In this document: positions 1 to 8,661 of the stretch, in pieces
How the letters are laid out: every line of letters begins with the position of its first letter
How positions within the stretch are numbered: the first letter of the stretch is position 1
Origin: an uncultured Solirubrobacterales bacterium
Lineage (GTDB): Bacteria; Actinomycetota; Thermoleophilia; Solirubrobacterales; 70-9
Direction of reading: 5' to 3'
Length of the DNA stretch: 64,000 bases
Assembly (NCBI GenBank): GCA_963842375.1
Contig: CAWJGB010000013.1
Span: 170,665 to 234,664 of the forward strand
The notes under the pieces: generated by a model
The model's database searches: none
Seen by the model: only the letters and a program-made list of their open reading frames with translations
Told to the model about the DNA's origin: nothing
Translations under genes and position numbers: made by a program

Positions 1-38
1 CGATGAGGTGCGGCTAGGTGCTTTGGGAGTCATCCGGT

Positions 39-52
39 TGTGTGTGTGTGTG
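39..52. repeat. (TG)7 dinucleotide repeat inside a GT-rich tract downstream of the first collagen-like gene
   Basis: Direct reading: tgtgtgtgtgtgtg at 39-52. The paralogous position behind the second copy (about 1100-1135) is GT-rich but degenerate. Confidence 0.9.
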
Positions 53-84
53 ATTTTCGGGTCGTTGTGGTGGTTTGTCGAGTT

Positions 85-101
85 CCCGCCCTCGGGGCGG
101 C
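85..101 (-). terminator. GC-rich hairpin about 10 nt after the stop of the 111..929 gene (no U-tract)
   Basis: The ccgcc/ggcgg stem with a 5-nt loop can be read directly. Its position just 3' of the stop codon fits a terminator, but the U-run is missing, so this is weak. Confidence 0.3.
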
Positions 102-110
102 GGTCACCGC

Positions 111-929
111 CTATGGCACCTGGTTATAGGCGGTGACCGCCCAGGTGCCTTCGCCTTCTATAATTTGTGCTTCACCTTCTGCTCCTTCCGGCCCTTCGAG
201 ATAGACCAGGAAGCCCCAGGGAGAGGCTTCTTCGAAGCTACCGCCGAACCCCTGTGCCTGCCTCTTATGTACTTCGCTGAAGTGGTGAGAAGGACCCACT
301 AAAGACTGGGTGTGCGCTTCGTATACACAGAGCCAGCCGGGGGCTGCGGTCGGGAACTTAATGGTGCCTGTGCATCCTTCTCCGTTTCCGCCGTGTTCTT
401 GTTGTTGTGTCGTGACGAACCGAGCCTGACCTTCTTGGATTCCGACTGGGTTGTTGAAATTTTCTTCAGGGAAGAAGGGTGTCAGTGGGATCGGGTAGGT
501 GATTCCCGCCTTAATATCTACCCCAATGGGGGCATTGCTAATTACACCGGACCCATAATCCGACCAGACACCGGTCTCGGTCTTGCCGGGGGGGAGGGTT
601 TCGGGGTATGAGGCGGGGTTGCCCGGTTCGCCTTTGGGGCCCTGTTCGCCTTTGGGGCCTTCTTTGCCTAGGGCACCGCTTGTTCCGTTGGTTCCGTTGG
701 CGCCGGCGGGGCCCGCAGGGCCGGGCTTGGAGTTCGCCTTGATCAGGGCGAGGACCTGGGCCTTGGTGAGCGCCTTGGCCTTGGAGGCGGTGGCATGGGA
801 GCCGCCTCCGTTCGCCGCGTAGGCGCCGCCGCCGAGGGCGAGGACGATGGCGAGGACGGAGAGGACGAGGCCGGCGGGGCCGAACTGGTCGCGCAGCGCG
901 GCGTAGGACGTGCGTAGGGACTTGGACAT
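111..929 (-). CDS. Collagen-like (G-X-Y repeat) protein with N-terminal signal-anchor and Cys-containing C-terminal globular domain
   Basis: Start reassigned to ATG 929 (MSKSLRTS), with ggaggag about 12 nt upstream. Hydrophobic anchor GLVLSVLAIVLALGGGAYAA. About 12 G-X-Y triplets (GPAGPAGANGTNGTSGALGKEGPKGEQGPKGEPGNP). The C-terminal domain shares GNGEGCTG...PTAAPGWLCVYE...GTWAVTA with the next gene. Confidence 0.85.
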   Translation of the reverse strand: MSKSLRTSYAALRDQFGPAGLVLSVLAIVLALGGGAYAANGGGSHATASKAKALTKAQVLALIKANSKPGPAGPAGANGTNGTSGALGKEGPKGEQGPKGEPGNPASYPETLPPGKTETGVWSDYGSGVISNAPIGVDIKAGITYPIPLTPFFPEENFNNPVGIQEGQARFVTTQQQEHGGNGEGCTGTIKFPTAAPGWLCVYEAHTQSLVGPSHHFSEVHKRQAQGFGGSFEEASPWGFLVYLEGPEGAEGEAQIIEGEGTWAVTAYNQVP

Positions 930-1151
930 GGTTATCTCTCCTCCTGGGAGTTGAGCGTGAAGAGGAGATGCCCTCCACACACGGGCGTGGCGGCGATCGA
1001 GCAGGGGTCGGCGACCCGAGCGATGGCGCTGGGGCGGGACAGCGAGTTGGAATTAGGGGTTTTGGAAGTCATCGGTTAGTCGGCATGTGGGCTTGGGTTG
1101 ATGTGGCGTGTGTTGGTCGTGTGTGCTTTGTGTGGGTCGCGCGCCCGGCTC

Positions 1152-1180
1152 CCGGAGCGGCCCGCGCTTGGCCGCCCCGG
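1152..1180 (-). terminator. Stable GC hairpin downstream of the second collagen-like gene
   Basis: ccgg-a-gcggcc / loop cgcgctt / ggccgc-c-ccgg, read directly. It lies about 20 nt 3' of the stop at 1201. No U-tract. Confidence 0.35.
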
Positions 1181-1200
1181 GAGGGGTGTGGTGAGGTGGG

Positions 1201-1935
1201 CTATTCGGCGGTCACCGCCCAGGTGCCGAATGCCAGCTCCCTTCTTAGTACAGGCGGTCCAGATTCCTGTGTAGAAATCCTGACCGTGGCACCCCATTGA
1301 TAGGCCGATTCGGACTCTTCAGGTCCCCATACTTCCTGGCGTATTGCGCCAGCACCACCGCGTTCGTAGACGCAGAGCCAGCCCGGAGCGGCGGTCGGAT
1401 GACGGTTACTTCCTGTGCATCCTTCTCCGTTACCACCCCCGAATTGTTGAGATGTGGTGACGTACCGAGCTTGCCCGTGTTTGATCCCCACTTCTTCTTC
1501 TTCAGAGATCACGGGGGCGAGCGGAATCGGGAAGGTGATCCCGGTCATGAGTTCTGCGTCGTAGGGTTCTTCAGCATTGGTTAACCCAGCGATCGCCCAG
1601 ACGCCGATCTCGGTCTTGTGGGAGGGGAGGACTTCGGGGTATGAGGCGGGGTTGCCCGGTTCGCCTTTGGGGCCCGGTTCGCCTTTGGGGCCCGGTTCGC
1701 CCTTGGGGCCGGGGGCGCCGTTGGAACCGTTGGCGCCATTCGTACCGTTGGCGCCGTTCTTGCCGGCGTACTTCTTGGCGATCTTTTCAACTTCCTTGCG
1801 CTGGCCGGAGGTCAGCTTGCCGGCGGCGTAGGCGCCGCCGACCATCGCCATGAGAAGGGCGAGGATGGCGACGGTGAGGCCGGCCTTGCCGAAGGGCTCG
1901 CGGATGGCGCGAACGGGGTGCTTGAGACGTTGCAT
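1201..1935 (-). CDS. Collagen-like (G-X-Y repeat) protein, paralogue of 111..929
   Basis: ATG at 1935. Anchor GLTVAILALLMAMVGGAYAA. About 13 G-X-Y triplets, including three perfect GPKGEP units. The C-terminal domain is conserved with the first copy. Confidence 0.88.
   Translation of the reverse strand: MQRLKHPVRAIREPFGKAGLTVAILALLMAMVGGAYAAGKLTSGQRKEVEKIAKKYAGKNGANGTNGANGSNGAPGPKGEPGPKGEPGPKGEPGNPASYPEVLPSHKTEIGVWAIAGLTNAEEPYDAELMTGITFPIPLAPVISEEEEVGIKHGQARYVTTSQQFGGGNGEGCTGSNRHPTAAPGWLCVYERGGAGAIRQEVWGPEESESAYQWGATVRISTQESGPPVLRRELAFGTWAVTAE
1655..1708. repeat. 3 x 18-nt tandem repeat encoding (GPKGEP)3 inside the collagen-like gene
   Basis: The unit cccggttcgcctttgggg is repeated at 1655, 1673 and 1691. 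The last copy has one mismatch. Confidence 0.9.
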
Positions 1936-2000
1936 CAGGTTGCTTCTCCTTGGGTGATGCCCCCCGGGGTGGGCCGGCCGGCCTTGTTTGGCCGTCGCCG

Positions 2001-2303
2001 TTCGATCTGACCATTGAGACCCCCGCCCGCGGCTGCAAACCGGCGCCTGGCGACGTCCTCGGTCGGCCCCATAGCGCTGCTATGAGCCCTCCCTGCGTCC
2101 TTCTGGAGTTTCGGGATTTTTGCCTCGCCCTCGATACTGCGCTTGGGCGACGCCTGCGAATTTCCCCCTGTATTGCCCCCCACCCCCATTGCGGGGGAAA
2201 TTCGTTCCTCGTGCGTGCGTGCGCCCGAAAAATCCCGAAACTCCAGGTCCTTGCCAGGCTTGATTTTCGCTCGCGAGGCGTGCGCCCCAATAGTCAGATC
2301 GAA
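2001..2303. repeat. Nested imperfect palindrome of about 300 nt (three collinear inverted-repeat pairs)
   Basis: Outer pair 2001-2016 ttcgatctgaccattg / 2288-2303 caatagtcagatcgaa (15 of 16). Middle pair 2103-2121 ctggagtttcgggattttt / 2228-2246, a perfect 19-nt complement. Inner pair 2157-2168 cgaatttccccc / 2193-2204 gggggaaattcg (12 of 12). Confidence 0.85.
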
Positions 2304-3386
2304 TGTCTCCAGCCTGGGGATTTTTTGGGTGGTGGGACGAGGGCCTTGCCTAAACATGGGTGCGCTCCCCTCCTTGTCGGGTGTTGGTCGAGTGACTGGT
2401 GCTGCGGAAGACAAGGTGCACCTCCCTGCCCACCTACCTGCATGAGACGAGGCGGAGTCGCGGGCGCCGCAAGCACAGCGCGCGTCGGGCAAGCCCAACG
2501 CTGTAAGGCGAGCGGCTGGCGACTCCTTGGTGGGCAGAGGGGCGGAAGCTGTGAGGGCCTCTCCCCCGCTCCCGAGGGACGAGGTGGAGGTGGTGGTCCC
2601 GGGGTGGTGAGGAGGGACGAAGCGCCTACTGCGAAAAGGGCGGGTAGGTCGGCAGGAGGCGCTGCGCCGGTGGGCTTGTGAGGGTCGGGGGCCTGCGCGT
2701 AAGCAGCGCGCCCTGCCGACCTGAGGGGATTGTGGGCCGCGGTCGCGGTCAAGGCGCTCGCTGCAAATGCTGCGCCACTCGCTCGCTGCGCAAAGGAATC
2801 AGATCGTGATGCTTGCTCGCGCGGGCTTGCGGTCGCTCGGCCTCGGCCTTCGGCCACCCTTCGGGTGAGTGCGGCCCGGCTGGGGGGGGTGGAACAGACG
2901 CGGGCGACCTCTAGACTGGGGATGGGAAGTCCACCAAGCATCGTTGAGGCCGCCCGCGTAACTGCTCCGGTGAGCCCGTCCGGATCGGGCTCGGAAACGG
3001 CCCCGGGGGCCAGGGAAGACTCCGGGTGCCGCCAATGCCGGCGAGGGGACGCGGGCGGCCCTGGCGCCGGGGGCAGGGAGCACCCCGAAGCCTGGGAAAG
3101 GGCCGCCCCTCCTATTGCTCGCCCTTGCGCCACCCACTCAGGAGAGCAGCGGGGGGGCGCAACTTTTAAGGTCGGGACCGGGCACGAGGGTGCGGGAAGG
3201 TGTGGTCGGCGAGGGGCAGACAGCGGGCGCTCGGTGCAGGCCGAGGCTGCTTCGTCGTCCCAACTGCAAGCGTTCACTCAAACTCCCCCTTCTGCCGGCC
3301 GCTTCCCGAGCGGCCCCCGTAGAACTCGGACTTTCTTGTCCCCATCGCGGGCGGACAAGCCAGATCGTGGCAGGAAGGGAGATGAT

Positions 3387-3402
3387 TGTCAAGAGCGGTA
3401 CA
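3387..3402 (+). promoter_or_regulatory. TGTCA-N6-GTACA motif copy 1 (candidate operator), upstream of D1
   Basis: tgtcaagagcggtaca, read directly. Confidence 0.55.
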
Positions 3403-3451
3403 CAAGATTTGTAACGGGAGGTACCGGCTTTGTCAATCCTGGACCCAAATC

Positions 3452-3467
3452 TGTCACCTCCAGTACA
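3452..3467 (+). promoter_or_regulatory. TGTCA-N6-GTACA motif copy 2, 40 nt upstream of the D1 start
   Basis: tgtcacctccagtaca, read directly. Confidence 0.55.
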
Positions 3468-3506
3468 TCCATTTTGTCCTCGCCCTGACTATCGTGAGCG
3501 CCGGAA

Positions 3507-4835
3507 ATGGCGACAACGGACCCTGTGCCGCAGCAGAGCGGGCCACTGCTTCCAAAGCTGAGCCCAGCAAGGGGGCGCCTGACGCCACAGCTAATCGCTC
3601 GCAATCAGCGCGGGCGCCTGCAGTGGGCGATGGTGGAAGCCGTGGCCCAGCACGGCTTCGCCGGCGTAACGCTGCGCGAGCTAGTCGGGCTGGCGGGAGT
3701 GTCGAAGACGACGTTCTATGAGCACTTCGACTCCAAGCAAGACTGCTTTCTCGAGACCTACGACGAGATCGTCTCCCGGGTCACGACGCGAGTCGGCGAG
3801 GCCTACAGGGAGCCGGGCGATTTCCATGCGAGGCTGGTGAGAGCGCTTTCGACCTTCATGGAGCTGGTTGTGGAGGAGCCGGCGGCGGCGTCTTTCGGGG
3901 TGGTCGAATCGCTGACCCTGGGCAGCGCCGGAGTAGCACACCGCGAACAGAGCTCGAGGGCCTTCGAGCTGATGATCCAGCAGAGCTTCGAGCACTCTCC
4001 ATCTGAGGAGGAGGTGTTGCCGATCACGGTGAGAGCGATCGCCGCCGGTATTCGGGGAGTTGTCTACCGGCGGCTGCGGGCCGGCAGCTGCGAGGATCTA
4101 CCCGACCATGTCGAGGAGCTGGTCGATTGGGCCCTCGGCTACCAGCGGCCGGTCAGCGAGTCGGTCCGAAGGGCCATCGAGGCGGCCCAGATTCCGGGTC
4201 TGAGCGTGGAACCAGCAGCCCGCGAGAACGATGCGGACGAGCCTGACTGGGATGAGCCCCCTGACAGCCGCCGCAGCCGGGCTGAGCTGACCCAGCGTGA
4301 GCGGATCGCCAGGGCAGCGGCTCGGGTGGTGGTCGAGAAGGGCTATGAGGCACTGAGCATCCCGGCAATCTCGGCCGTGGCGGGGACCTCCAATCAGACC
4401 TTCTACGAGAACTTCTCCACCAAGCGAGACGCTTTCCTGAGCGCATTTGAGATTCTCACGGAGAAAGCCCTCGCGACCACCGCGGCGGCCTTTGAGGCCG
4501 CGGGCGACCGACCTGAGGCGATCGGTGCCGCGATACGGGCGATGCTGGAGCACATCGCGGCGAACGATCTGTTTGCCCGCCTCGCTTTCTTTCAGCTTCC
4601 GACCGCGGGTCCGGTAGCACTCGATCACGCCGATCCCGTGATGGACCGCTTCAATTCCCTCCTTGAGCCGGGCACCGCGTCGGGTGGGAGAAACGGTCCG
4701 TTGCCGGGCGTGATCTCTGAGGCAGTTGGAAGCGGTATCTGGTCGGTGATTCAGCACGAGATTGCGCACGAGCGGACGGAGTCGCTACCCGAACTGGCGC
4801 CCGAGATCACGAGAGTCGCGCTCGGATCGCGCTAA
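3507..4835 (+). CDS. Single-chain double-TetR transcriptional regulator (D1)
   Basis: 442 aa with two TetR HTH units: TLRELVGLAGVSKTTFYEHF and SIPAISAVAGTSNQTFYENF. The linker is WDEPPDSRRSRAELTQRERI. Confidence 0.9.
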   Translation: MATTDPVPQQSGPLLPKLSPARGRLTPQLIARNQRGRLQWAMVEAVAQHGFAGVTLRELVGLAGVSKTTFYEHFDSKQDCFLETYDEIVSRVTTRVGEAYREPGDFHARLVRALSTFMELVVEEPAAASFGVVESLTLGSAGVAHREQSSRAFELMIQQSFEHSPSEEEVLPITVRAIAAGIRGVVYRRLRAGSCEDLPDHVEELVDWALGYQRPVSESVRRAIEAAQIPGLSVEPAARENDADEPDWDEPPDSRRSRAELTQRERIARAAARVVVEKGYEALSIPAISAVAGTSNQTFYENFSTKRDAFLSAFEILTEKALATTAAAFEAAGDRPEAIGAAIRAMLEHIAANDLFARLAFFQLPTAGPVALDHADPVMDRFNSLLEPGTASGGRNGPLPGVISEAVGSGIWSVIQHEIAHERTESLPELAPEITRVALGSR

Positions 4836-4866
4836 GAACCTGAGCGAGACTGCCTGAACGGCTCGC

Positions 4867-5517
4867 TCAGGCCTGCGCCAGTCGTCTCGCCTCGGCGGAC
4901 CCCAGGTAGGGGGTGAGGAGCAGCTCGAGGAACTCGGGCTCAAGTGTGAGGAGGAGGTCGGCCTCTTCAGCCAAGAGGTGGCCCGAAATGAGTGAGGTGA
5001 TGCCGCCAATGAGGCTCTGCTCAGTCGATTCGGGCAGCGAGGCACCGAGGGGGTAGCGGGCGCGGCCCTCGCGAAGACGAGAGGCAAGTCGCCTGATCAG
5101 GGCCTGTTGGCGCTCGGTCGCCACCGGACCCGACCCAGCCACCTCGACGGTGAAAACCCTGGCATGAACAGGTGCTTCGGTGAGGAAACGAAGGGCAGCA
5201 TCGAGTGCGGCCTTGACCCGAGAAGGCCAGTCGCGCTCGACATCGCAATCTTCCATGGCATGGGCCCAGAGACGCTCGATGAACCTCTCCTGAGCGGCGA
5301 GGAGGGCGGCGCGGATGTCGTCGAAGTGCGCGTAGAACGTGTCCTCGTTGAGGTCCGAACGGCGGAGGACCAGCTCGACGGTGAGGGCGTCGTAGCCATA
5401 TTCGGCGGCGGCCTTGGTCACCGCAGCGATGAGGAGATCGCGCTCCTCCGTGGGGCTCGACGTGGACTCGCTGTGGGCGCCGATCCGGGAGGCTCGCCTG
5501 GGTTGGTCATCGGCCAC
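4867..5517 (-). CDS. TetR-family transcriptional regulator (classical single unit, s1)
   Basis: 216 aa. HTH region LLIAAVTKAAAEYGYDALTVELVLRRSDLNEDTFYAHF. Convergent with D1 and divergent from D2. Confidence 0.9.
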   Translation of the reverse strand: MADDQPRRASRIGAHSESTSSPTEERDLLIAAVTKAAAEYGYDALTVELVLRRSDLNEDTFYAHFDDIRAALLAAQERFIERLWAHAMEDCDVERDWPSRVKAALDAALRFLTEAPVHARVFTVEVAGSGPVATERQQALIRRLASRLREGRARYPLGASLPESTEQSLIGGITSLISGHLLAEEADLLLTLEPEFLELLLTPYLGSAEARRLAQA

Positions 5518-5550
5518 GGTAGAACCAGCTTATGGAGGTATCGAAATCTC

Positions 5551-5566
5551 TGTCAAGCTGAGTACA
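5551..5566 (+). promoter_or_regulatory. TGTCA-N6-GTACA motif copy 3, centred in the s1/D2 divergent intergenic region
   Basis: tgtcaagctgagtaca. There are 33 nt to the s1 start (5517) and 33 nt to the D2 ATG (5600). Confidence 0.6.
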
Positions 5567-5599
5567 CGCTGGCAACCGACGCGGGCTATCGTGGATGGG

Positions 5600-6955
5600 A
5601 TGGCGGCGACTTCAGAGGGTCCTGAATCGCTCTTTCGGAGACTTTCAGGAAGGCCGGGAGGGATTGGGCAGGAGGCGGTCGCCCGCCATCAGCGAGCGCG
5701 ACTCGAGGGAGCGATGCTAGAGGCGGTGAGGCGCCACGGCTATGCGACAGTGACGCTGAGGGAGCTAGTGGGGCTGGCCGGGGTCTCCAAGAGCACCTTC
5801 TATGAGCACTTCGACGATAAGCAGGCGTGCTTCCTGGCGACCTTCGAGGAGATCGTCGCCCTAGGGGTAGAACAAATCGAGGCGGCCTATGGCTCAGAGC
5901 AGGGGCCCGAGAAGCGGCTGCGAACGGCCTTCGAGCGGCTCGCCGAGCTGGTCGCCGAGCAACCGGCGGAGGCCGCACTGGTGATCGTCGACTCGGTCAG
6001 CCTAGGGGCGGCCTCGGTAGAGCCGCGGGCACGCGTCGCCCAGATCTTCGAGTCGCTGATCCACGAGAGCGCGGCGGAGATCGGGCATGGTGGCGGTGTG
6101 ATCTCGAGGGTGACCACACGGGCCATCGTCGGCGGGATCCGCAGCCTCATCTATCGCTCGCTGCGCGCCGGGAATCCCGAGCGTCTCCGAGGGTATGCCG
6201 CCGAGCTGGTGCAGTGGGGGCTGGACTACCAACTCGAGGCGGAACGTCGTGCCGCAGGTGCCGCGGACGTGGGGGCACGGCTAGTGGCGGCGCTTGGCTC
6301 GGATGCAATTGAGAGGGCGGAGAGTCCGGAGGAGTCGTCGGAGGGATCGAGCCTTGCCTGGGAAGAGCCCGCGAACAGCGAACGCTCACGCGCCGAACTC
6401 AGCCAGCGGGAGCGAATGTTGCGAGCCACAGCCCAGGTAGCAGTGGAGAAGGGCTATGCACGGCTCAGCATCCCAGCGATCTCCGCGGCGGCGGGAACCT
6501 CCAACCAGACTTTCTATGAGCACTTCGACTCCAAGCAGACGGCCTTTTTGGCCGCCTATGAGGCACTTGTGCGAAGAGCACTTGAGAGGATCGCCACCGC
6601 CGTCGCGGCGCAAGATGACTGGCTGGAGGGAACGGCGGCCGGGATCGTCGCGCTGCTCGGCTGCTTCGTGCGAGACCCGATGTTGAGGACGCTGGCATTC
6701 GTCGAGAGGCCAGCGGCGGGCGTGGCGGCACTTGACCGGGCCGAGACGCTGCTCGATCTGTTCACGGCGTTCCTGCGGCCGGAGCCGCTCCCCGCGAACG
6801 TTGCCCGGCGCCCGCCCGACGTAGTGATCGAAGCTATGGCCGGAGGGGTTTGGGCCGCGGTCGAGGGCGAGACCACAGGGGGATTGGTCGACTCGGTGCC
6901 GGAGTTGGCCTCAGAGCTGCTGAACATCGTTCTGGTGCCGTTCGGGGTGTTATGA
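5600..6955 (+). CDS. Single-chain double-TetR transcriptional regulator (D2)
   Basis: Start moved from the track's 5414, which overlaps s1, to ATG 5600 (MAATSEGPESLF). An in-frame GTG at 5591 is also possible. HTH units TLRELVGLAGVSKSTFYEHF and SIPAISAAAGTSNQTFYEHF. Confidence 0.88.
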   Translation: MAATSEGPESLFRRLSGRPGGIGQEAVARHQRARLEGAMLEAVRRHGYATVTLRELVGLAGVSKSTFYEHFDDKQACFLATFEEIVALGVEQIEAAYGSEQGPEKRLRTAFERLAELVAEQPAEAALVIVDSVSLGAASVEPRARVAQIFESLIHESAAEIGHGGGVISRVTTRAIVGGIRSLIYRSLRAGNPERLRGYAAELVQWGLDYQLEAERRAAGAADVGARLVAALGSDAIERAESPEESSEGSSLAWEEPANSERSRAELSQRERMLRATAQVAVEKGYARLSIPAISAAAGTSNQTFYEHFDSKQTAFLAAYEALVRRALERIATAVAAQDDWLEGTAAGIVALLGCFVRDPMLRTLAFVERPAAGVAALDRAETLLDLFTAFLRPEPLPANVARRPPDVVIEAMAGGVWAAVEGETTGGLVDSVPELASELLNIVLVPFGVL

Positions 6956-7220
6956 CGATGTCGTGTCATAACACCCCGAATGCCGACCCACCTGGGCGAG
7001 CACCGCCTGGCTTCGCGGTCAAGTGGCCGAAGCCAGCGGCCCGAGCCTTGGTGAGGCAGGCGACCCGGGCGTCGAGGCCGGGACAGCCCCGGCGCCCGAG
7101 GGTCCTGCATCATGGCGCCGTCTCCAGGGAGCAGACGACGGCCGCATGGCTTCGTCCCAGGGAAAGACGGCAGTCGATTTTGCGCCATCCCGTATTCATG
7201 TCGGCCCTCTTCGGGCTCCG

Positions 7221-7256
7221 TGTCAATGACGGTACACCGATGTAAGCACCGGTACA
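7221..7256 (+). promoter_or_regulatory. Two adjacent motif copies (tgtcaatgacggtaca and tgtaagcaccggtaca) upstream of D3
   Basis: Read directly at 7221-7236 and 7241-7256. The second copy has TGTAA instead of TGTCA. Confidence 0.5.
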
Positions 7257-7335
7257 TACATTGTCAACAGGAGGAGCCCGGTGGTCAGCCGCGTCGGCGA
7301 GCGGAGTGGACGGCCGGGTCTATCGTGAGGGGGCG

Positions 7336-8661
7336 ATGACACCGGCCTCCCCCCTTCCCGAGCCGCTGTTCCCGAGCCTCGCAGGACGGCGCGGTGAGAT
7401 CGGGCCCCAGCAGGTCGCGCGCCACCAGCAGGGCCGCCTTCAGGGGGCGATGGTGGAGGCGGTCGCCCGCCATGGTTACGCGACGACGACGGTCGGGGAG
7501 CTGGTGGCTCTGGCGGGGGTATCGAAGAGCACCTTCTACGAGCACTTCGGAGGCAAGCAGGAGTGCTTCCTGGCCACCTTCGATGAGATCGTCACCCAGG
7601 CCAGCGAGCGGGTAGGAGTCGCCTATCGGTCGGAGACGGGATTTCGGGAGCGGCTGAGGGCAGCGATGGAGGCGTTCGTCGAGATCGTCGCCGAGGCGCC
7701 GGCGGCCACAGCGCTCGTGGTCGTCGACTCGCTCAGCCTGGGGGCGGCTGGAGTGGGACCCCGCGAGCGCTCGGTTGAGGCCTTCGAGTTGATGTTCCGC
7801 CAGAGCTTCGCGCAGGCGCCCGAGCGCGGCGAGGTCTCGCAGGTAACGACCCGGGCGATCGTCGCCGGCATCCGGCGGGTCGTCTACCGCTGCCTGCGCG
7901 AAGGTCGGCCCGAAAAGTTCCGCGACCATGCCGAGGAGCTGCTGGAGTGGGCGCTGGCCTATCAACGCCCGGGCGTAGCGCCAGGCTCCGCGGCGACGTC
8001 GATTGCCCTCTCCACCCCCACGAAGACGTCAGCGAAGGAGTCCCAGACGGACGCACCGAGCTGGGATGAGCCCCCTGACAGCCGCCGCAGCCGGGCTGAG
8101 CTGACCCAGCGTGAGCGGATCGTCCGTGCGGCGGCGCTGGTAGCGACGGACAATGGTTATGAGTCGCTCAGCATCCCGGCGATCTCCGCGGCGGCGGGAA
8201 CCTCCAACCAGACCTTCTACGAGCACTTCGCCAGCAAGGAGGAGGCCTTCATCGCCGCCTTCGACGCCCTTGCCGGACAAGCCCTGCGCGCCGGCACCGC
8301 CGCGGCGGCGGCGAGGCGCGGCGACTGGATCGAGTCGGTCGGCGCGGGGATCCGGGGGCTGCTGGAGTTCATCGTAGCCAACCGCCTCTTCGCGCATCTC
8401 GCCATCTTCCAGCTGCCGACCGCGGGGGCAGACGCGCTGGACCACGCCGACGCAACGGCGCGACGCTTTACCTCCTTTCTGGAGCCAGACGCCCTGCCCG
8501 ATGGGCTGGGCGCGCCCGTGCCGGCGGTGGTGATCGAGGCGATCGGCGGCGGGGTGTGGGCGGTGATCCAGCACGAGATCGCGCACGAACGGGTGGCCTC
8601 GCTGCCGCAACTGGCACCACAGATTGCGAGGATCGTGCTGGCACCATTGGGTGCGAGGTAA
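7336..8661 (+). CDS. Single-chain double-TetR transcriptional regulator (D3)
   Basis: Start set to ATG 7336 (MTPASPLPEPLFPSL) by analogy with the paralogues. HTH units TVGELVALAGVSKSTFYEHF and SIPAISAAAGTSNQTFYEHF. Confidence 0.88.
   Translation: MTPASPLPEPLFPSLAGRRGEIGPQQVARHQQGRLQGAMVEAVARHGYATTTVGELVALAGVSKSTFYEHFGGKQECFLATFDEIVTQASERVGVAYRSETGFRERLRAAMEAFVEIVAEAPAATALVVVDSLSLGAAGVGPRERSVEAFELMFRQSFAQAPERGEVSQVTTRAIVAGIRRVVYRCLREGRPEKFRDHAEELLEWALAYQRPGVAPGSAATSIALSTPTKTSAKESQTDAPSWDEPPDSRRSRAELTQRERIVRAAALVATDNGYESLSIPAISAAAGTSNQTFYEHFASKEEAFIAAFDALAGQALRAGTAAAAARRGDWIESVGAGIRGLLEFIVANRLFAHLAIFQLPTAGADALDHADATARRFTSFLEPDALPDGLGAPVPAVVIEAIGGGVWAVIQHEIAHERVASLPQLAPQIARIVLAPLGAR

Follow-up and report, generated by a model that had tools for sequence, protein, structure and literature searches.

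The gene-free spacer and its mosaic composition

The window analyzed here is a stretch of 64,000 nucleotides that corresponds to positions 170665-234664 of contig C13 in a metagenome-assembled genome (MAG) of a soil actinobacterium (class Thermoleophilia); the MAG measures 2.68 Mb, comprises 13 contigs and is 79 % complete. Positions 1936-3506 of this window separate a gene for a collagen-like protein (1201-1935, minus strand; Pfam Collagen, E = 6e-8) from the first gene of a TetR array, which encodes a double-TetR protein (3507-4835, plus strand; TetR_N, E = 6e-21). Since the collagen-like gene lies on the minus strand and the TetR gene on the plus strand, the spacer between them is divergent. 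A first-pass annotation of the sequence had described this gap as unusually large for the window. In a crude codon-periodicity scan, it is indeed the sole stretch of at least 900 nt without periodicity within the window, but such stretches are not unique to it: the assembly contains about 60 of them, among the longest of which this one ranks, and several coincide with loci that share repeats with it.

The region very probably is a non-coding divergent spacer of 1.57 kb that is filled with nested small non-autonomous repeats, rather than one RNA or a dead gene, and that has grown to this length because such elements accumulated. Its long perfect helices are the palindromic bodies of separate repeat elements, and these elements are inserted into one another and into the spacer. 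The parts distinguished in the following are, from left to right, the hairpin repeat module A with a 144-bp element nested in it, the C1/D module, which is interrupted by the repeat C2, the hairpins E' and E, and block F.

The composition of the region is that of a mosaic. Within the own genome, 779 of its 1571 nt recur, and these fall into three blocks (1936-2287, 2573-2892 and 3211-3317). The number of own-genome copies is at least five for module A (about 15 with a profile), three for the 144-bp element, at least three for C1, 11 for C2 and two each for D and F, while the segments 1936-1989, 2315-2540, 2901-3023, 3116-3210 and 3321-3506 are single-copy. Conservation is piecewise, with copy number and taxonomic range differing from module to module. 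Furthermore, modules A, C2 and C1 occur together at four other places of the genome (C13:136.3k, C10:53.4-53.8k, C10:70.3k and C3:67.3-67.9k; C-numbers denote contigs), which is the kind of mosaic clustering known from repetitive extragenic palindromic (REP) sequences and bacterial interspersed mosaic elements (BIMEs). The plasmid and phage collections gave no match in this analysis.

The absence of a gene, which the first-pass annotation had stated, was borne out by the coding tests. The GC content differs between codon phases by 0.02-0.20 over 1936-3506, compared to 0.3-0.5 in the flanking genes, and no Pfam domain was detected in the nine longest open reading frames (ORFs) of the region, with the Collagen and TetR_N controls being positive. 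No frame proved to be protein-encoding. A decayed protein-coding gene, which had been proposed as one explanation, would account for the long open frames of 327, 252, 243 and 187 amino acids (aa) and for a minus-strand ORF that starts at 2358 behind a good Shine-Dalgarno (SD) motif and stays open through a 150-nt insertion. Nevertheless, this explanation is extremely improbable. Besides the lack of a Pfam match, no intact homolog was found in 40 relatives, the frames of block E are not conserved between the window and G001, one of the three other genomes of the genus (G001, G002 and G003), and the translations are rich in proline, alanine and arginine, as expected of GC-rich non-coding DNA. 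The substitutions are spread evenly over the codon positions in two candidate ORFs (24/25/28 and 28/35/32). A translated search of the 40 relatives with the 327-aa ORF, the check for pseudogene remnants that had been suggested, recovered repeat copies within the genus only, with a protein identity of 38-48 % compared to a DNA identity of 70-76 %, and no match in 37 genomes of other genera. In a six-frame tblastn search against the sister loci, every frame matched alike wherever the DNA was homologous.

The two candidate ORFs, both on the minus strand, were considered individually and rejected as conserved genes based on these substitution counts. The first (24/25/28) is the leader ORF from 2358 to 1935, which has a strong SD motif at 2358 and ends with TGATG on the start codon of the collagen-like gene. 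It is open in frame through module A and the insertion, since the inserted 150 nt (144 + 6) are a multiple of three, and an equivalent without the insert is present in G002. The second (28/35/32, G001 compared with G003) lies behind the SD-like motif and GTG of block F. It contains single-base indels, and the window copy has a 1-nt deletion.

Module A and the nested 144-bp element

Module A is a hairpin repeat found across Thermoleophilia. Its left arm and core occupy 1990-2102 on the plus strand, with box 1 (GTCCTCGGTCG) at 2055-2065, an apical stem at 2065-2090, box 2 (CTGCGTCCT) at 2093-2101 and the target GTCCTT at 2097-2102. A second copy of GTCCTT is located at 2247-2252 and is followed, likewise on the plus strand, by the right arm (2253-2314) and then by the run GGGGATTTTTTGGG. 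The continuation of the right arm, GTCCTTGCCAGGCTTGATTTTCGCTCGC, agrees with the consensus of uninterrupted module-A copies. For the 73-nt core (2029-2102), many matches with an identity of 73-90 % were obtained in genomes of several families of the order, and the pattern GTCCTCGGTCG-N18-34-CTGCGTCCT occurs in at least 120 contigs titled Solirubrobacterales, Gaiellales, Thermoleophilaceae and Conexibacter. The length of the conserved core, 73 nt, first suggested a tRNA. This identity was ruled out by ARAGORN, which detected no tRNA or tmRNA, in combination with Rfam. On the plus strand, the end of the module-A hairpin and the subsequent GGGGATTTTTTGGG (2305-2330) have a terminator-like appearance; no plus-strand gene lies upstream.

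The module carries the AGGACGCAGG box and has a covarying central hairpin. In the alignment, the direct boxes GCGTCCTCGGTCG and CTCCCTGCGTCCTTG flank the apical stem, the sequence of which varies with its pairing kept, and outer stems lie beyond them. Compensatory changes are frequent: among six copies from six genomes, 14-16 pairs are altered on both sides. In a set of 80 copies from 80 contigs, pair 88-157 is GC in 29 copies, AU in 20, CG in 19 and UA in 3, and pair 92-153 is GC in 41, UA in 16 and AU in 8. The outer arms have also changed jointly between the G002 ortholog and the window (GATCTGACCATTG/CAATAGTCAGATC vs GATCCGGATATTG/CAATACCCGGATC).

All 98 scored copies of module A are located between ORFs, as is characteristic of the extragenic stem-loop palindromes of the REP type. 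Placement at gene ends prevails. A gene end is found on the left of 73 of the 98 copies, 89 % adjoin at least one gene end, and 38 lie between convergent genes compared to 11 between divergent ones. The copy in the window, 55 nt upstream of a start codon in a divergent spacer, belongs to this minority context. In turn, a second element has inserted into it, and it forms part of a larger mosaic. Relative genomes contain 5-8 or more matches each.

In these properties, module A is similar to the REP, BIME and REPIN (REP doublet forming a hairpin) sequences of proteobacteria (PMC3333891, PMC2817692, PMC3116915), which are multicopy extragenic imperfect palindromes with covarying pairs, form mosaics with other short motifs and are mostly located at gene ends. 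However, its unit length of 115-170 nt and its roughly 15 copies in the 79 %-complete own genome do not match the 20-40 nt and at least 100 copies per genome, in fact hundreds, of REP sequences. Further differences are the two direct GCGTCCT boxes in internal loops, the host class Thermoleophilia and the fact that no REP-associated tyrosine transposase (RAYT/Y1) was found in this genome. No relevant literature was found by full-text search, either on the box sequences or on Thermoleophilia together with REP. By analogy, the hairpin repeats would be selfish DNA of the REP type or of the type of miniature inverted-repeat transposable elements (MITEs), persisting mostly where little harm is done, at gene ends. 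There, module-A hairpins may double as RNA 3'-end hairpins.

The element nested in the window copy of module A (2103-2246) is MITE-like. It is 144 bp long, is bounded by terminal inverted repeats of 19 bp without a mismatch (CTGGAGTTTCGGGATTTTT) and contains a 12-bp hairpin that is likewise perfect. In uninterrupted module-A copies, the right-hand box runs on as ...CTGCGTCCTTGCCATGCTCGG...; in the window, the insert CTGGAG...CTCCAG stands between ...CTGCGTCCTT and GTCCTTGCCAGGCTTG..., and the 6 bp GTCCTT are duplicated. Three copies of the element exist, all of them 100 % identical (window 2103-2246, C11:179639-179782 and C11:189810-189953), and all of them follow CTGCGTCCTT of different module-A copies with GTCCTT on both sides. 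The similarity between the host copies, which fall into two sub-families, is only about 70-88 %, and the insert at C11:179639-179782 is inverted relative to its module A. Since identical inserts are combined with diverged flanks and one of them is inverted, they represent three separate insertions and not one duplicated segment.

Empty counterparts of these sites are available as well. Uninterrupted module-A copies of the own genome read CTGCGTCCTTGCC, and an intact CTGCGTCCTTG is kept in at least eight other copies. The G002 ortholog of the spacer contains module A without the insert, although the box is diverged there; a target duplication along with an empty site in a relative is typical of a MITE. 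Together with the terminal repeats (19/19 bp), the presence in several copies and the small size, the 144-bp element thus has all the defining features of a MITE except for a known autonomous parent. Its length is by far insufficient for a transposase gene, although its own frames were not searched. It was found neither in the three other genomes of the genus nor in 200 genomes of the order.

Like the bacterial MITEs Correia, RUP, ERIC and Nezha (PMC3184786), the element is small and non-coding, has perfect terminal inverted repeats and generates a target duplication; identical copies, nesting in other repeats and predicted hairpin-forming transcripts are also common to both. It differs from them by its mere three copies, all in one genome, and by the specific 6-bp duplication GTCCTT. 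Its site-specific nesting is the sole point that goes beyond routine repeat biology. As the same six bases were struck in three module-A copies, an enzyme with high target selectivity is implied, comparable to the REP-recognizing transposases of Pseudomonas and E. coli. IS1397, ISPpu9/ISPpu10, ISPsy8 and ISRm22 are insertion sequences with REP elements as their targets (Tobes and Pareja 2006, PMC1525189). They are the nearest precedent for a mobile element at one fixed position of an extragenic palindrome, which applies to three of three copies here, but the 144-bp element is non-autonomous and non-coding, carries terminal inverted repeats and has no transposase gene. It would be moved in trans by a transposase that recognizes the GCGTCCT box. 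A more far-reaching and doubtful proposal is that these boxes are the site of a sequence-specific recombinase or transposase of Thermoleophilia with the 144-bp element as a passenger directed to the box by it or by a second enzyme, and that, separately, E and F are cis-regulatory RNAs for accessory cassettes. If true, the former would amount to a system for targeting REP elements in a Gram-positive lineage from soil.

Helices, folding and the conserved modules

The long perfect helices reported in the first-pass annotation are present, with their positions confirmed to within 1 nt. They comprise 11 bp at 2646-2656/2712-2722, 10 bp at 3053-3062/3099-3108, 7 bp each at 2972-2978/2986-2992 and 3335-3341/3353-3359, and 6 bp at 3297-3302/3309-3314. 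The nested palindrome consists of the arms 1990-2027/2277-2314, a perfect 19-bp helix at 2103-2121/2228-2246 and a perfect 12-bp helix at 2157-2168/2193-2204. Compared with 200 dinucleotide-preserving shuffles, perfect local inverted repeats of at least 9 bp are enriched, with 7 observed and 1.24 ± 1.08 expected, a number that none of the 200 shuffles reaches. This does not extend to the shorter helices of 6-7 bp: stems of at least 7 bp are at chance level (24 vs 17.2), and 15 of the 200 shuffles reach 24.

The folding energies show the same division, and the repeat bodies alone fold better than chance. The segment 1990-2314 folds with -153 kcal/mol (z = -9.0 against shuffles), 2103-2246 with z = -8.9 and 2640-2728 with z = -4.4, compared to z = -1.0 for 2540-2900, z = -0.7 for 2900-3400 and z = +0.4 for 2315-2540. 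For the small hairpins, z ranges from -1.7 to -2.8.

The idea that the whole 1.57 kb form a single large structured RNA, non-coding and of a new class, draws on the enrichment of helices of at least 9 bp, on the two hairpins with strong z-scores and on the conservation of pieces in relatives. Despite this, such an RNA is most improbable. Three of four sub-segments fold like shuffles, as does most of the region, and the strongest helix is the 144-bp insertion, which is confined to this genome. Elsewhere the modules occur independently of each other, in both orientations and in other contexts. The cmscan search against Rfam 15, suggested together with this idea, matched no family at E ≤ 1 in positions 1-8000 of the window, and four related loci gave only spurious matches to miRNA models. 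A strong argument against it is the piecewise, non-collinear conservation, with whole modules missing at orthologous loci. Of the initial interpretation, the missing protein frame, the real long helices and the conservation of some of them, as seen in the compensatory changes of module A, have thus been retained, and the one RNA and the dead gene have been given up.

To the right of module A, C1/D (2545-2763 and 2833-2892, plus strand) is a genus-level module with a conserved hairpin at 2646-2722. Own-genome copies are located at C7:159019-158725, C7:155808-155646, C3:64090-63883 and C7:238957-238739, and copies with 70-76 % identity were found in G001 (at least six), G002 and G003. The hairpin is kept in twelve C1 copies, mostly by sequence conservation: repeated changes on both sides are limited to one pair, and one-sided changes lead to G-U pairs on the plus strand. 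The module is interrupted by C2 (2764-2832, plus strand), a dispersed repeat with a unit of about 58-70 nt. Its 11 own-genome copies are 77-97 % identical, some being arranged as tandem pairs and some abutting module A, and copies in other genera reach 85-90 % identity. The place of C2 in C1 is always the same. It is occupied in the window, in two of the C7 copies and, in G001, in the copies at C12:7840-7907 and at locus L149, and it is empty in the copies on C3, at C7:238k, in G002 and in G003. The tandem pairs at C13:122700-122816, C10:53449-53571 and C13:131629-131943 of the own genome often lie directly beside module-A cores and have the appearance of BIME-like mosaics.

The hairpin E' (2888-2962, plus strand; stem 2898-2911/2946-2959) is paralogous to the hairpin E (3024-3115, plus strand; stem 3049-3062/3099-3112; z = -2.3). 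Both contain the stem motif ACGCGGGCGGCC and match the same segments of locus L009 in G001. The loop of E (3063-3098) is conserved, with a near-invariant GGAGCAGGGAGCACCCCGA run at 3070-3088, and E as a whole is nearly identical between G001 and G003. Block F (3211-3320) has conserved counterparts at the orthologous loci in G001 and G003 and at a paralogous locus in the own genome (C3:63149-63256), and holds the hairpin 3297-3314 and, on the minus strand, the SD-like GAAGGGGGAG followed by GTG. Copy numbers of E and F are low, with one to five matches per genome.

Sister spacers, accessory genes and flanking regions

E and F are kept together at the orthologous loci on contigs C1 of G001, C5 of G003 and C11 of G002, and the identity between G001 and G003 is 76 % over 390 nt. 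The spacers around them differ in length and content, either because whole modules are missing or because toxin-antitoxin cassettes are present instead. The G001 spacer contains D, E and F only, the G002 spacer lacks C1/D and has a MazEF-like pair after E, and the G003 spacer contains a VapBC-like pair on the plus strand between C1 and E. The spacer appears to be a hot spot for change, the same slot holding toxin-antitoxin cassettes in sister genomes. Named by eye, these are a PIN/VapC-like pair at 4161-4906 of locus L019 in G003 and a MazF/PemK-like pair at 4924-5507 of locus L020 in G002, each with a small antitoxin ORF.

Modules C1, E and F travel with accessory genes, namely collagen-like proteins, TetR regulators and toxin-antitoxin pairs, and in G001 and G002 a distance of 146-186 nt separates E from toxin-antitoxin cassettes downstream of it. 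E and F probably belong to the regulatory region of neighboring accessory genes, and C1, E and F may hold promoters or leaders of the accessory genes that accompany them. On contig C12 of G001 (loci L009 and L144, 6300-10000), a run of two-gene cassettes for proteins of 72-123 aa resembles a cassette array. Equally oriented C1-D-E modules stand ahead of each of these cassettes, and 180-186 nt separate the end of E from the first start codon. This placement of C1 and E was the sole reason for considering them as integron attC sites; no GTTRRRY core was seen by eye, and IntI was not searched for.

F, E, E', C1 and perhaps module A could constitute a structured minus-strand leader of about 1.3 kb with a promoter near 3300 that controls the collagen-like gene. 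Consistent with this, E and F precede the collagen-like gene at the orthologous locus in each of the four genomes of the genus, the SD-like motif and GTG of F are conserved on the minus strand, a change in the E hairpin of G001 and G003 gives a G-U pair on the minus strand only, and C1 copies usually adjoin a divergent gene for a collagen-like or secreted protein. However, the one-sided changes in C1 give G-U pairs on the plus strand, which is the opposite direction, and G003 has its plus-strand VapBC-like cassette between C1 and E. In addition, F and the gene are separated by a variable distance of about 850 to 1340 nt in which the sequence is replaced, and 2900-3400 folds at chance level. 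A leader of this kind is accordingly judged unlikely.

The preferred explanation, a spacer filled with nested repeats, makes the odd 1.6-kb gene-free gap understandable without a new RNA class or a pseudogene, and by analogy the region resembles REP/BIME mosaics and MITEs in its way of working. Several observations weigh against it. Half of the region is single-copy (2315-2544, 2901-3210 and 3321-3506), with no explanation other than spacer or regulatory DNA. Helices of at least 9 bp are still enriched outside the nested palindrome (5 vs 0.95), so that E', E and C1 may be under some selection for structure. Several modules may also be covered by a long leader or an antisense RNA. As for the machinery, no RAYT/Y1 transposase (PF01797, Y1_Tnp) was matched in the own genome with positive controls, which does not prove its absence as the genome is 79 % complete, and no TnpB was found in it either. 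No longer element with the same ends was present in the own assembly, allowing up to four mismatches, 200 genomes of the order yielded no autonomous partner, and a search of metagenomes yielded eight matches to the 19-mer, single chance ones in low-GC contigs, and no partner. The analysis supplies coordinates and consensus cores of four or more repeat families from a class that has hardly been studied, and these can be used to mask or annotate MAGs of Thermoleophilia.

The remaining parts of the spacer are single-copy. Positions 1936-1989 directly adjoin the 5' end of the collagen-like gene, whose minus-strand start codon is at 1935-1933, and include its ribosome-binding site; nhmmer finds only this segment itself. 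Between module A and C1, the spacer 2315-2544 folds at chance level (z = +0.4), and 2254-2395 has 75 % identity to the same position in G002. The segment 3321-3506 (plus strand) is the promoter and operator region of the first double-TetR gene, which starts at 3507. The two operator-like motifs that had been noticed at the end of the region are both present, reading TGTCA-N6-GTACA at 3387-3402 and 3452-3467 ahead of the TetR start. A promoter scan found no sigma-70-like site, and terminator-like sites are at chance level.

Paralogs of the collagen-like surface protein were observed at several loci, namely C7:159169-159696, C3:69484-69700 and C13:170439-171617 of the own genome and the loci L148, L018, L019 and L020. 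At most of them, a C1 module is located divergently upstream and TetR genes are close by, which suggests a duplicated accessory gene unit. Finally, three very large ORFs (1917, 1140 and 1178 aa) are located at a distance of 30-50 kb on the upstream side of the window (C13:122856-132031 and 136767-140303), in an area dense in copies of C2 and module A.

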